Shown here: positions 25,252-39,779 of the stretch, one piece after another | How positions within the stretch are numbered: position 1 is the first letter of the stretch | Layout: each line of letters begins with the position of its first letter | Origin: Acidobacteriota bacterium | Lineage (GTDB): Bacteria > Acidobacteriota > Thermoanaerobaculia > UBA5066 > Gp7-AA6 | DNA: 64,000 nt | NCBI GenBank assembly: GCA_039931865.1 | Contig: JBDTRB010000001.1 | Coordinates: 200 to 64,199 of the forward strand | Direction: 5' to 3' | Translations under genes and position numbers: made by a program | Notes under the pieces: model-generated | What the model saw: only the letters and a program-made list of their open reading frames with translations | What the model was told of the DNA's origin: nothing | The model's database searches: none

Positions 25252-25500
25252 CTAGTCCGACAGCACGGCCTTCTGCACGTCGAACACGAGGACGCCCTCC
25301 TGCTCTCCGCTTGTGATCAGGCCCGCGCCCGTCTCGCGACAAAACGCGTCTACGTCGGCGGCAGCCGCAGGGTCCGTCGCGAGAAGACGGGCCCGTGCGC
25401 CCGGAGGACAGCACCTCAACGCCGCAGCGAGCCGCAGGACAGGAATCGGGCAGTAAAGGCCCCGGGCATCCACCTCGACGACTGTTTCAAGCTTTTCCAC
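25252..25500 (-). CDS. TusA-like sulfurtransferase (CPxP motif)
   Basis: About 82 aa from GTG: (M)EKLETVVEVDARGLYCPIPVLRLAAALRCCPPGARARLLATDPAAAADVDAFCRETGAGLITSGEQEGVLVFDVQKA. The LDxRGLxCPxP motif is diagnostic of the TusA/SirA family. The track ORF (143 aa) runs on into the repeat. Confidence 0.6.
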   Translation of the reverse strand: MEKLETVVEVDARGLYCPIPVLRLAAALRCCPPGARARLLATDPAAAADVDAFCRETGAGLITSGEQEGVLVFDVQKAVLSD

Positions 25501-25571
25501 GACCCCATCGTCTCGCGATCCGGACCATTCAGCGAATTGTTTTCGTCCCTGACACGCCCCGTTGCCCTCCT

Positions 25572-36070: not shown

Positions 36071-37084
36071 GTGAACGACCGACCTCGGACGCAGGAGTTC
36101 GACATCCTGATCATCGGCGCCGGGCCTGCCGGGATCGCGCTCGCGGCCGAAGCGCGGGCGGCGGGAGTCGGACCGGGCCGGATTCTCGTCCTCGAACGCG
36201 CGCCCGAGCACTCGTGGATCATCCGCAAGTACTATCCGCCGTCCAAACCCGTGCTCGCCAACTACAAGGGAATCGATGCGAAGTGCGAAGGAGTGCTCTG
36301 CATCCCGGACCTCACTCGCGAGCAGACCCTGACTTACCTCGACGCGGCGATTCGCGATTCGGGCGCGCAGGTGCGTTACCAGGAGGAAGTGTTCCGGATC
36401 GGGAGCGAGCCCGACGAGCGCCTTCGCGTCGAATCGACCGGCGGAGTCTTTCTCGCCCGCGTCGTCGTCATCGCGATCGGGATCCTCGGGCGGCCCGCGA
36501 AGCCGTCCTACCCGATTCCCGGCTCCGTCAAGGCCCGGATTCTCTTCGACGTCACGAGCGAGGAGTTGTCGGGCCAGGACCTCCTCGTGGTCGGAGGCGG
36601 AGATACCGCCACCGAGTACTGCCAGTTCCTCGTTCAACAGGGCAACCGCGTCGTCCTCTCCTATCGCGGAGCGACTCTCTCGCGTCCCAACCCGATCAAC
36701 CGCGATAGCGTGCTCGCGCTCGCGAGGCAGGGAAAGCTCGAGTTGCGCCTGTCCTCCGACGTGACGGGGCTCGAAGCGGCCGAGGAGAAGGTTTGCGTTC
36801 GATTCGGCGGGACGGAACAGCCGCTTCTGGCCGTCGACCGGGTGATTTACGCGCTCGGCGGCACGACGCCCCAGAATTTCCTGAAGTCCGCGGGCATCGA
36901 GTTCGACGGCCCGCAGCCGAAGCTTACGGAGCGGTTCGGCACCAGCGTCCCCGGGCTCTTCCTCGCCGGAGACCTCACGGCCGGAAGGACGGGGGGATCG
37001 ATCATTCTCGCCTTCAACACGGCCGCCGCGGCGATGCGCCAGATCTGCGAAGACCATGGCATCTGCGAAATCGGAGGGGCCTGA
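36071..37084 (+). CDS. FAD/NAD(P)-binding oxidoreductase, YpdA / thioredoxin-reductase-like
   Basis: 337 aa, GTG start; N-terminal GxGxxG (DILIIGAGPAGIALA), second Rossmann motif (LLVVGGGDTATEY), C-terminal GLFLAGD motif. Confidence 0.75.
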   Translation: MNDRPRTQEFDILIIGAGPAGIALAAEARAAGVGPGRILVLERAPEHSWIIRKYYPPSKPVLANYKGIDAKCEGVLCIPDLTREQTLTYLDAAIRDSGAQVRYQEEVFRIGSEPDERLRVESTGGVFLARVVVIAIGILGRPAKPSYPIPGSVKARILFDVTSEELSGQDLLVVGGGDTATEYCQFLVQQGNRVVLSYRGATLSRPNPINRDSVLALARQGKLELRLSSDVTGLEAAEEKVCVRFGGTEQPLLAVDRVIYALGGTTPQNFLKSAGIEFDGPQPKLTERFGTSVPGLFLAGDLTAGRTGGSIILAFNTAAAAMRQICEDHGICEIGGA

Positions 37085-37144
37085 TCGGGGGAAGCGGAGG
37101 ACGGCAACCGCGCGCCGGGCGCGGGGGAGCGGAAGGACGGCGCT

Positions 37145-37306
37145 TCAGCTCCCCGAGGCGAGCTTCGGCGGCAGCTCTTCCGAGTCCTCTACGGGGAATC
37201 CCGCCGCGAGCCACGCGTCCAGCCCCCCGGCGAGCGGCCGCACGCGAGTGAATCCCCTCTCCATCAGCGCGCGGGCCACACGGGCCGCCGAGGCCTCATT
37301 GGGTCA
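37145..37306 (-). other. In-frame TGA (37304-37306) followed by 52 in-frame codons that complete the rhodanese fold (candidate selenocysteine codon, or nonsense/sequencing artefact)
   Basis: The continuation reads PNEASAARVARALMERGFTRVRPLAGGLDAWLAAGFPVEDSEELPPKLASGS then TGA. Against a canonical rhodanese (IVLYC-RSGRRS-ALAAQALRELGF...LEGGMLAWEEAGLPV) it aligns without gaps. The TGA falls at the catalytic-Cys position. Confidence 0.6.
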
Positions 37307-38173
37307 CGTGCAGTAGAGAACGATCTCCCGGTCCGCGGGAAGTGTCGAGGCCTTCGCCTCGATCTCCCCGTACTGGAGCACCCGGGCCCCGGGGATCCGC
37401 CGGGGGTCGGCCATCCGCGCGCCCTGCGTGCGCACGTCCAGAACGACGGGGGCGCGATCGCCGGCGAGGAGAGGCCGCAGCTCCTCGACCGAGATGCGCG
37501 CCATGCGCAGGACCCGATAGAAGCGGCGCCTCTGCCACCACTTCAGCAGCATGAAGAGGACAAGCGCAGTCGCCAGAAGGGCGAACGCGCCCGTTCCGAT
37601 GCTGGTCAGGAACGCGAGAGCCCGATCGACGGCGCGGTGGAACAGTCGTCCGAGGAGGACGGCGCCGCCCGCCCAGAGGAGCGACCCGCCCGCGTCGTAA
37701 ACGAGAAACGCGGCGGGACGCCGTCCGATCGCGCCCGCGAGCGGCGGGGCGACGGTGGAAAACCCGGGGATGAACTTCGCGACGAGCAGGGACGGCATTC
37801 CCCAACGCTCGAACGCGCTCGACGTCTGGCGCACGCACGAATCGGGCGAGAGGGAGACCCGGCACAGCGTCTTCAGAACTCCGAGCCCGAGGCGGGCGCC
37901 GAGCGCGTACCAGATCGAGTCCGCGATCAGGCACGCGAGGAGCGCGACGAAGAGGACGCTCGTCACGCGTATGTCGTGCTCGACCGTCAGGGCGCCGGCG
38001 ACGATCAAAGTCGGGACTGCCGGAATGGGCAGCCCGATCTGCTCGAGGAGGACGTTCACGAAGACGAGAGGCAGCCCGTACCGCAGGACCGTTTCGACCA
38101 GGGGGTGCACGAGCAAATCGTATGACGAACCCGAGATTGGAGCCGAGCCGGTTGAGCGCCGAGCGTTCCGCAT
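37304..38173 (-). CDS. DedA-family membrane protein fused to a C-terminal rhodanese domain; reading frame interrupted by an in-frame TGA at 37304-37306
   Basis: From ATG 38173 (MRNARRSTGSAPISGSSYDLLVHPLVETVLRYGLPLVFVNVLLEQIGLPIPAVP..., DedA/SNARE-associated core) to ...ISVEELRPLLAGDRAPVVLDVRTQGAR...ADREIVLYCT followed by TGA. The N-terminal ~200 aa of the 492-aa track ORF are rejected as extension. Confidence 0.75.
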   Translation of the reverse strand: MRNARRSTGSAPISGSSYDLLVHPLVETVLRYGLPLVFVNVLLEQIGLPIPAVPTLIVAGALTVEHDIRVTSVLFVALLACLIADSIWYALGARLGLGVLKTLCRVSLSPDSCVRQTSSAFERWGMPSLLVAKFIPGFSTVAPPLAGAIGRRPAAFLVYDAGGSLLWAGGAVLLGRLFHRAVDRALAFLTSIGTGAFALLATALVLFMLLKWWQRRRFYRVLRMARISVEELRPLLAGDRAPVVLDVRTQGARMADPRRIPGARVLQYGEIEAKASTLPADREIVLYCT

Positions 38174-38436
38174 TGATCGGGCGGGGTGAGGCGGGCTCCG
38201 GCCCGCGCGCGGCCCGAACGGCGCCCGCCAGGTGGGGAGGCCGCCGGGCCGCCGGGCCGCGCAACGTGGTGGGCGCCCATTTGTCTCGGCACTTCCGGAC
38301 ACTCGACGCTGAACGCTGAAACCCTCAACCGGGCGGGGTGTACGTTCCGTCATCCGAATGCCCTCCGCCGCCCGCACCGCGAATAGAGCCCCCTCTCCGG
38401 CTAACCATCGGCCGCAAGCCCCGTCTAACTGATCGG

Positions 38437-38997
38437 ATGGAAGGGATCGACCGAGCGGCCGTCCTGCGGGCGAAGGCCGGCGACCGGGAGGCCTTCCGGG
38501 AGATCGTCGAATCGCACAGCCGGCACGTTTTCGGGCTGGCGTTTCGGATGATGGGCAACGAAGAAGACGCGGAGGACGTGGTGCAGGAGACATTCCTGAA
38601 GGCATACCGGGGGCTGGCGCGGTTCGAGGGAAGCTCCGAGGTTTCGACCTGGCTCCATCGGATAGCCGCCAACTGCGCGGTCGACGTCCTCCGCCGCCGC
38701 AAGGGCGGGCTCTCCGAATCCGCGGGCTCCGACGACACGGATCTGCTGCCGGACGCCCGATCTGGCCCGGAAGCCGCGGCACTGGGATCGGAGATCGACC
38801 GGCGCCTCCAGGCCTCGCTCGGCCGGCTGTCCGCGATGGAGCGCGCCGCGTTCACGCTGCGGCATTTCGAGGGGCGGTCGATCGGGGAGATCGCCGGCGT
38901 TCTCGGCGTTCGCGCCGGGGCCGCGAAGAACTGCGTGTTCCGCGCGGTCGCGAAGCTGCGAGAAGACCTGGGCCCCGTTCGGACAGCCGCGCGATGA
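38437..38997 (+). CDS. ECF-type RNA polymerase sigma factor (sigma-70 family, regions 2 and 4)
   Basis: 186 aa from MEGIDRAAVLRAKAGDREAFREIVESHSRHVFGLAFRMMGNEEDAEDVVQETFLKAYRGL... ...RSIGEIAGVLGVRAGAAKNCVFRAVAKLRE. Confidence 0.85.
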   Translation: MEGIDRAAVLRAKAGDREAFREIVESHSRHVFGLAFRMMGNEEDAEDVVQETFLKAYRGLARFEGSSEVSTWLHRIAANCAVDVLRRRKGGLSESAGSDDTDLLPDARSGPEAAALGSEIDRRLQASLGRLSAMERAAFTLRHFEGRSIGEIAGVLGVRAGAAKNCVFRAVAKLREDLGPVRTAAR

Positions 38998-39779
38998 AGC
39001 ACTCGACGGACCAGGATCTGCTGACCTTCCACTGGGACGCGGACCGCACCACGGGCGCGCACGTCGCCGGCTGCGCCTCGTGCGCCGCGCGGCTTTCGGA
39101 ACTCCGCGCGGTGCTGCGCGCCGCCGAGGAAGCTGCTGTCCCCGAGCGCGGGGAAGGGTACGGCCGGGACGTCTGGGCGCGCTTGGCGCCCTCGCTCCCC
39201 GACACCGCTCCCCGCGCGCGACTGTGGGACTTCGGGTTCCGGCGCCTCGCGGCGGCCCCCGCGGTGGCAGCGCTCGTTCTCGTGCTCGTGCTTGTGCTCG
39301 TGGCCGCCGGGTTCCTGGCAGGGCGGCTCGGCACGCCGCGCCCGACCGCGGCGGCGGAGCTGGCCGAGCTGGCCGAGCTGCGGCAACGGGTTCTCTTCGC
39401 CGAGCTCTCGGAGCATCTGGCGCGATCGGAAGCAGTGCTCCTGGAGCTCGCGAACGCGCCGCCGGGAGCCGTGGACGTCTCCGCGGAGCAGGCGCGACTG
39501 ACCGAGCTCCTGCCGGCAAACCGCCTCTACCGCCAGGCCTCGCGCCGGGCAGGCCAGCCCGCGATCACGGGGGTCTTGGACGAGCTCGAGCGTGTTCTTC
39601 TCGACGTCGAGCACGGGCCTTCTCAGCTGACCGGGGCAGAGCGCGACGCGCTCGCCCGACGCATCGAAAACGACGGGGTGCTCTTCCGCCTCCGCGTCCT
39701 CTCGTCGCGCATTCGCGCGGGCGGAAAGACGCCGCCCTCCCCCGCATCCGATTCCCTCCCCGAAAGGAAACGCGCATGA
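38994..39779 (+). CDS. Anti-sigma factor (zinc-binding HxxxCxxC, single TM)
   Basis: 261 aa, ATGA overlap with the sigma stop. N-terminal H-x3-C-x2-C (HVAGCASCAARL) anti-sigma motif; one TM helix (AAPAVAALVLVLVLVLVAAGFLA). Confidence 0.7.
   Translation: MKHSTDQDLLTFHWDADRTTGAHVAGCASCAARLSELRAVLRAAEEAAVPERGEGYGRDVWARLAPSLPDTAPRARLWDFGFRRLAAAPAVAALVLVLVLVLVAAGFLAGRLGTPRPTAAAELAELAELRQRVLFAELSEHLARSEAVLLELANAPPGAVDVSAEQARLTELLPANRLYRQASRRAGQPAITGVLDELERVLLDVEHGPSQLTGAERDALARRIENDGVLFRLRVLSSRIRAGGKTPPSPASDSLPERKRA

Follow-up and report, generated by a model that had tools for sequence, protein, structure and literature searches.

Does the TGA codon that interrupts a DedA/VTT-rhodanese fusion gene inside its rhodanese domain end the protein, or does it encode a residue in the middle of a longer one? 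The question is raised by a minus-strand open reading frame in the 64,000-nucleotide stretch of DNA analysed here (the window, from whose first letter all positions are counted). The upstream part of this frame reads to ...ADREIVLYCT, where it meets an in-frame TGA at 37306-37304; past this internal TGA the frame continues for 52 sense codons (PNEASAARVARALMERGF...KLASGS; the full downstream peptide is PNEASAARVARALMERGFTRVRPLAGGLDAWLAAGFPVEDSEELPPKLASGS) and then reaches another TGA at 37147-37145. The sequence-only reading that drew attention to the site had described the end of the frame and its 52-codon continuation in the same way, and both its coordinates and its sequence proved correct. 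The public annotation presents the gene as a 268-aa “VTT domain-containing protein”, shortened at the TGA.

If the TGA is read through, the recoded CDS extends over 37145..38110 (minus strand), from a GTG start at 38110-38108 to the TGA that closes the downstream part, and encodes a protein of 321 aa with selenocysteine (Sec) at position 269. The GTG start agrees with the database protein P0001, which is 99% identical and begins MHPLVETV. The read-through product has Cys residues at positions 60, 83, 92, and 267, to which the recoded position 269 is added. Comparison of the homologous sequences leads us to suggest, with a probability of about 0.87, that this DedA-rhodanese gene is a genuine selenoprotein gene, in which the internal UGA is recoded as Sec.

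The two halves of the fusion are recognisable from the read-through product. Residues 29-155 (37646..38026, minus strand) form a DedA/VTT membrane domain (Pfam PF09335, 42.5 bits against a cutoff of 33.9), which is also matched by the NCBIfam DedA and UptA models, well under their cutoffs. The rhodanese domain is placed by Pfam at residues 208-302 (37205..37489, minus strand; PF00581, 42.6 bits against 22.2), and it therefore spans the TGA; its membership in the rhodanese family is indicated both by the PF00581 score above the gathering threshold and by the Cys that opens the active-site loop. Modelled by AF2 with good overall confidence (pLDDT 82), a Cys-form relative, P0005, has a C-terminal domain that matches solved rhodanese folds. 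The membrane domain carries a Cys83...Cys92 pair (37835..37864, minus strand; motif LCRVSLSPDSC); neither residue varies among the 35 aligned fusion proteins, whether Sec or Cys forms, and the loop between them has low pLDDT in the AF2 model. The last hydrophobic helix is followed by the basic stretch KWWQRRRFYRVLR (KWWQRRRFYR). Under the positive-inside rule, a basic stretch after a membrane helix lies on the cytoplasmic side, and its place after the last helix suggests that the rhodanese domain faces the cytoplasm.

One line of evidence for recoding comes from the distribution of the codon itself. DNA was sampled from the loci of two shortened proteins, from 80 metagenome loci, and from 80 loci of species-representative genomes; after removal of duplicates, 57 distinct sequences with TGA and 91 with TGT/TGC at this site were obtained, which answers the question, posed in the sequence-only reading, of whether orthologues have TGC/TGT or TGA at this codon. 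The TGA carriers are almost all Thermoanaerobaculia/Acidobacteriota MAGs, and the TGT/TGC carriers are mostly Proteobacteria. Neither TAA nor TAG was found at the site among the fetched homologous sequences. The 57 TGA-carrying genes terminate with various stops (TGA in 31, TAA in 15, and TAG in 11), while the internal codon is TGA in 57/57; this means that TGA serves as an ordinary stop in these genes and that the internal TGA has been selectively maintained. Among the best 120 protein matches, 103 are of about 268 aa, end in ...LYCT, and cover 81-83% of the query at 63-99% identity; the other 17 are longer and extend past the site, most of those inspected continuing as ...CTCPNEA.... The string LYCT-TGA-PNEA aligns with LYCTCPNEA of the Cys-form homologues, and the motif was read in the TGA forms (LYCTU in 48, VYCTU in 6, LYCTUPSEA in 2, and LYCAU in 1).

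The region downstream of the TGA is, to judge from its pattern of divergence, evolving as coding sequence. Over 45 downstream codons, the mean pairwise divergence of the TGA forms at codon positions 1/2/3 is 0.21/0.20/0.48, and that of the Cys forms in the same region is 0.24/0.24/0.55; the low divergence at positions 1 and 2 indicates purifying selection on the protein encoded past the TGA. No frameshift was found downstream of the TGA in any of the 57 sequences, at 50-99% protein identity. The first downstream stop occurs 39-62 codons after the TGA, past the ...G[FY]P[VI]E motif in which the rhodanese domain ends.

The TGA was originally proposed to stand exactly at the position of the catalytic Cys, on the strength of a gap-free alignment with the canonical rhodanese loop. 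This assignment has to be corrected. In HMMER alignments, the catalytic Cys of the solved rhodaneses 6mxv and 5ve3 aligns with the C of LYC, i.e., with Cys267, whose TGC codon is located at 37310..37312 (minus strand). In 5ve4 the residue corresponding to C267 is Ser; the entries 5ve4 and 5ve5 are both described as Cys mutants in which the rhodanese is inactivated. The full-length homologues read LYCTCPNEASAARVA, with two Cys in the loop; since the catalytic one is the first of them (C267), the TGA replaces the second, at +2. The canonical catalytic Cys is thus retained, and the earlier alignment was shifted by two residues; the proposed Sec269 (37304..37306, minus strand) would belong to the motif C-T-U-P-N-E.

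A second line of evidence is provided by a short hairpin just downstream, which we consider a candidate bacterial SECIS core (37271..37288, minus strand). It has the sequence GCGGCC-CGUGU-GGCCCGC, with a 6-bp stem, one bulged C, and the loop CGUGU; it begins after a 15-nt spacer from the TGA, and its apical loop lies 21 nt from the TGA. The bSECIS constraints (PMC13188914) comprise four criteria, among them a UGA-to-loop range of 16-37 nt, and the hairpin agrees with all of them: a 5-nt loop with G then U at positions 2-3, a 6-bp stem, a distance of 21 nt, and an MFE of -7.8 kcal/mol. The consensus of the TGA forms over the hairpin is GCS GCC CGU GUG GCS CGC (18 nt, six codons), and the divergence at the third positions of these codons is 0.22 in the TGA forms versus 0.60 in the Cys forms, which vary at the equivalent codons even in protein (AAQVAK, AALVAK, AARAAK, and others). 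Across 55 distinct sequences, 98.8% of the cells are paired. The pair 33:45, which joins two synonymous third positions of Ala codons, is GC in 28 sequences, CG in 16, GU in 9, and unpaired in 2; the loop-closing pair 36:42 has one compensatory CG-to-GC change (L134). Neither the shuffle controls nor the slid registers attained the actual pairing or covariation score of the hairpin.

Folding energy, on the other hand, gives no independent support, because the hairpin with its wider context is no stabler than shuffled sequences (single-sequence MFE -7.8 kcal/mol, z = -1.0; 34 of 200 shuffles fold as well). The case for the hairpin is based on the contrast of the TGA forms with the Cys forms and not on thermodynamics. 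Clear covariation is confined to one hairpin pair, and as the TGA sequences are related, part of this signal could be inherited. The RNAalifold consensus includes a possible 3-bp extension of the lower stem, GGC...GCU (37266..37295, minus strand), weakly supported because its pairs, though kept, change at just one of their two sides. A search of the whole window against Rfam gave no family at the gathering threshold, and within 37100-37400 there were two chance-level matches only, with E of about 5. The hairpin had at first been judged unconvincing, which is right for the single sequence (z = -1.0) but not across the homologues, where the comparison makes it a convincing candidate SECIS that is specific to the TGA forms.

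A neighbour-joining tree built from 150 distinct proteins gathers the TGA forms into one large clade, which also includes one Methylomirabilota MAG and one “Gammaproteobacteria” MAG. The Cys forms from Beta- and Gammaproteobacteria (Dyella, Herminiimonas, Collimonas, Thermithiobacillus, and others) are placed outside it. Two Cys forms, L102 (the locus of P0005) and L020, are nested within the TGA clade with the hairpin sequence still present, which matches what a recent Sec-to-Cys reversion would leave. The topology of these sequences shows a single change from Cys to Sec near the base of an Acidobacteriota clade, followed by a few reversions to Cys.

The use of Sec by these bacteria has some precedent in the literature. 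Acidobacteria had selenoproteins in a 2006 survey (PMC1794560), three selenoproteins are known from Occallatibacter riparius (PMC12013277), and MAGs of Acidobacteriota and Methylomirabilota contain hydrogenases of the Sec type (PMC13582414). These reports suggest Sec use at the level of the phylum Acidobacteriota only. Within the window and all fetched flanks, a scan for in-frame TGA between segments with coding GC3 revealed no other TGA-interrupted coding region; the remaining matches of the scan were neighbouring genes in a common frame or antisense frames and were rejected.

Several readings compete with Sec insertion. One of them, which had been listed among the early alternatives, takes the TGA for a sequencing or assembly error or for a very recent nonsense mutation in one genome. 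It has only its prior in its favour and is refuted by assemblies made independently of one another, from many samples and pipelines (NCBI MAGs, ENA, JGI, Logan), that contain the same TGA; the codon recurs in the 98%-identical MAG L086 (Thermoanaerobaculia bacterium, JBBROA01) and in long-read single-contig MAGs, which excludes a sequencing error and a private nonsense mutation, so that its probability is negligible. If the TGA were instead a real stop, the product would be a 268-residue DedA protein with a dead half-rhodanese, and the downstream region would be a decaying remnant or a separate small ORF. Gene callers and NCBI do annotate the gene in this way, and one caller predicts a 47-aa downstream ORF in L002. 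The same reading is favoured by the lack of Sec machinery in the window and all fetched flanks, in which E. coli SelA, SelB, and SelD gave no tblastn match; likewise, by ARAGORN, the window contains no tRNA gene and the fetched loci lack tRNA-Sec. A remnant, however, would gain frameshifts, stops, and non-synonymous changes, while here the frame is intact in 57/57 sequences with divergence of the coding type; the internal stop is always TGA, no conserved start codon is present downstream of it, and a rhodanese fold cut within its active-site loop would yield two non-functional pieces. We regard termination at this codon as highly improbable.

Slightly more weight, though still very little, is due to the possibility that the UGA is read through as something other than Sec, either as Cys by a SECIS- and SelB-dependent tRNA(ReC)/SelC* or by a suppressor allo-tRNA or near-cognate leaky decoding. 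UGA followed by C is a weak termination context, and the base directly 3' of the UGA is always C, which fits such a read-through; moreover, the identity of the residue at position 269 is deduced from sequence comparison. tRNA(ReC) inserts Cys at a UGA that is followed by a SECIS (Vargas-Rodriguez 2018, as cited in PMC13582414), and Acidobacteria have unusual allo-tRNAs that were proposed to be suppressors (PMC5389517). Nevertheless, selC* genes have been reported in other phyla and not in Acidobacteria, and a Cys product needs only TGC or TGT, which makes a costly TGA with its hairpin hard to explain when both are kept clade-wide; leaky read-through, for its part, would need no conserved hairpin. 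We rate this account low because a TGA would be pointless where a TGC suffices and because selC* is unreported in Acidobacteria. The Sec reading of the UGA, with which the sequence-only reading had started, is strongly supported by the combination of a clade-wide TGA, Cys in the homologues, coding-type sequence downstream, and a hairpin restricted to the TGA forms.

In bacterial Sec insertion, SelB with Sec-tRNA(Sec) binds the SECIS hairpin and decodes UGA. By this mechanism the UGA at 37306-37304 would be recoded as selenocysteine, the hairpin at 37288-37271 would act as a bacterial SECIS and recruit SelB carrying Sec-tRNA(Sec), and translation would proceed through 52 codons to the TGA at 37147-37145, producing the 321-residue protein. 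In rhodanese chemistry the active-site Cys carries a persulfide; by analogy, Cys267 may carry a persulfide or a bound selenium species, and Sec269 could serve as a highly nucleophilic partner two residues away, forming a selenenylsulfide with it. The loop C267-T-U269-P-N-E would thereby do more than carry sulfur and become a faster site of redox or transfer chemistry. More speculatively, C83 and C92 might serve as a relay for sulfur or selenium species that connects the membrane domain with the rhodanese loop, and the protein might capture or move a chalcogen compound at the membrane. The persulfide and selenenylsulfide chemistry, the C83/C92 relay, and the cytoplasmic orientation are features that we only infer.

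A bolder proposal would be that we are dealing with the first DedA-family selenoprotein working as a membrane-coupled chalcogen relay, in which the DedA domain moves or presents a sulfur or selenium species (thiosulfate, selenite, or similar) that passes from the Cys pair to the Cys-x-Sec loop. We consider this proposal as a whole unlikely; if true, it would fit older genetic work that connected DedA with the uptake of selenite in Cupriavidus metallidurans (Ledgham 2005, as cited in PMC2744661).

The genomic neighbourhood had also been taken as a hint of sulfur/selenium relay chemistry. The flavoprotein gene invoked in this connection does exist: a convergent Pyr_redox_3 gene at 36071-37084 ends 60 bp from the fusion gene. 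Such a neighbour is found only in L086, L087, and L089, the three closest relatives, and hence it provides no evidence of a functional partnership, which we reject as unsupported. The tusA-like gene is present in the window as well, as an ORF near 25252-25503 (minus strand) that is a true member of the TusA family; its proposed link to the fusion gene lacks support, as it is located 12 kb off, beside purH in a housekeeping synteny (purH, CTP synthase, KDO8P synthase). A sulfur-relay operon with the flavoprotein or the tusA-like gene is thus not supported. At least 19 TGA-form loci have in common, upstream of the fusion gene, a divergent ECF sigma factor gene together with the one that follows it; this conservation may simply reflect shared ancestry.

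The practical consequences concern annotation and experiment. The 268-aa mis-annotation affects at least dozens of species-level Thermoanaerobaculia/Acidobacteriota genomes as well as many contigs from soil metagenomes, while the real product is probably a selenoprotein of 310-330 aa with an intact rhodanese domain. Use of selenocysteine is thereby suggested for a class of soil bacteria that is abundant but little studied. For most of the widespread DedA proteins the function is unclear; a DedA subfamily with a Cys-x-Sec/Cys rhodanese loop and two invariant membrane Cys residues offers a testable handle on sulfur and selenium handling at the membrane. Genetics should be feasible, since Cys-form orthologues occur in the culturable Dyella, Herminiimonas, Collimonas, and Thermithiobacillus.

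How does this protein relate to the selenoproteins and SECIS elements already described? The remark in the sequence-only reading that rhodanese-type sulfurtransferases are a reported selenoprotein family was accurate: five forms are listed in PMC13188914. Form 3, with the CxU motif, corresponds to the NCBIfam model NF041203, “rhodanese_LYCAU” (PMC13188914, PMC9312934), and because this form is already modelled, the type of site observed here is known. The best NCBIfam match of the window protein is indeed NF041203, “rhodanese-related (seleno)protein” (85.5 bits, E = 2e-24, residues 202-309), although the curated cutoff of 115 bits is missed both by it and by eight Cys-form fusion homologues (63-82 bits). 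The two share a homologous rhodanese domain and the L-Y-C-x-U arrangement, in which the catalytic Cys is kept and Sec follows at +2; one relative of our protein, L116, even reads LYCAU. They differ in architecture: NF041203 describes a stand-alone protein of about 126 aa, and here the rhodanese domain closes a polytopic membrane protein of 321 aa at its C-terminal end. A literature search for DedA with selenocysteine or selenoprotein returned no report of a DedA selenoprotein, and the word “DedA” is absent from the two selenoproteome reviews examined, including PMC13188914. In short, the C-x-U rhodanese loop is a known type of site and the DedA-fused architecture is not catalogued, so that a membrane-anchored architecture is added to the known CxU rhodanese selenoproteins.

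The candidate SECIS resembles the E. coli fdhF type and the bSECISearch consensus in being a coding stem-loop just 3' of the UGA with a small loop containing G then U. It differs from the fdhF-type element in that its sequence is unrelated, its stem is short (6 bp), and its bulge is on the 3' side.

An analogy may also be drawn with the YeeE-YeeD(TusA) system of thiosulfate uptake, in which a polytopic membrane protein with conserved Cys residues works together with a small sulfur-carrier domain. The DedA-rhodanese protein likewise pairs a polytopic membrane part containing conserved Cys with a sulfur-carrier domain, but the folds are unrelated on both sides (DedA/VTT versus YeeE, and rhodanese versus TusA). 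A Sec form of the YeeE/YedE thiosulfate transporter family, found in some lineages, is listed in PMC13188914.

Counterparts of the window protein with Cys at the site are the fusions annotated as “DedA family protein/thiosulfate sulfurtransferase GlpE” in Beta- and Gammaproteobacteria, for example in Thermithiobacillus tepidarius, Dyella, and Undibacterium. They are full-length orthologues with 50-58% identity and the same architecture, they have the invariant C83/C92 pair in common with it, as well as the matching loop, LYCTCPNEA, and they differ from the gene described here in carrying TGT or TGC in place of the TGA, without the conserved hairpin.

Within the clade of TGA forms (homologues with TGA at the codon of the proposed Sec269) are nested two Cys-form genes that have TGC at this codon, namely those of the homologous loci L102 (L102:10795-10850; protein P0005, from the Acidobacteriota MAG CAVULG01) and L020 (L020:2921-2975). 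Both retain the sequence of the TGA-form hairpin, the candidate SECIS (GCCGCCCGTGTGGCGCGC and GCGGCCCGTGTGGCGCGC, respectively), and by this sequence they look like recent Sec-to-Cys reversions carrying a relic SECIS.

TGA forms were also detected beyond Acidobacteriota, in a “Gammaproteobacteria” MAG (L134, JBGQGU01) and in a Methylomirabilota MAG (L110, JBKPCB01), which could be due to horizontal transfer or mis-binning. L134 has a variant hairpin, GCGGCG CGUGU CGCCCGC, whose loop-closing pair has undergone a compensatory change.

At 38338-39779 (plus strand), in divergent orientation to the DedA-rhodanese gene (38110-37145, minus strand), an ECF sigma-70 gene (Sigma70_r2/r4) is followed by a 261-aa ORF, which has no Pfam match and is possibly an anti-sigma factor. 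This arrangement is kept in at least 19 TGA-form loci (47–96% identity); L001, L002, L086, L090, L096, L111, L117, and others have it, and it was not found beside the proteobacterial Cys forms.

On the other side, the sequence-only reading had placed a flavoprotein gene converging on the DedA-rhodanese gene across a 60-bp gap, and this is confirmed by a Pyr_redox_3/Pyr_redox_2 gene at 36071-37084 (plus strand). In L002, the DedA-rhodanese gene is immediately followed by KDO8P synthase, and by this comparison of gene order the flavoprotein gene and its upstream neighbour, a DUF885 gene, appear to be an insertion relative to L002. A tusA-like gene had been taken as a hint of sulfur/selenium relay; a TusA-family ORF with a CPIP motif is indeed present (about 25252-25503, minus strand; Pfam PF01206, 58.8 bits), adjoining purH, and it lies in housekeeping synteny common to the window and L002; nothing evident connects it with the selenoprotein gene.

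The DedA domain contains the LC[RK][IV]SLSPDSC motif (37835-37864, minus strand), both cysteines of which are kept in 35/35 aligned fusion proteins, whether of the Sec or the Cys form; the loop separating them has low confidence in the AF2 model of P0005. As to the active-site loop, P0023 has lost both of its cysteines and reads YYTYSDE, P0030 has YCSMCLDE, and P0054, probably an assembly chimera judging by its sequence, matches the family identically through ...ILYC and thereafter has an unrelated low-complexity tail (RSEEHTSELQSRPHLVCRLLLEKKNK...). The loop has therefore been remodelled or inactivated in some lineages.

In all TGA-form loci, the base following the UGA is invariably C (+1, from a Pro CCN codon; column 16 of alignment A2). 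This context might aid recoding, UGA-C being a weak termination context in bacteria.
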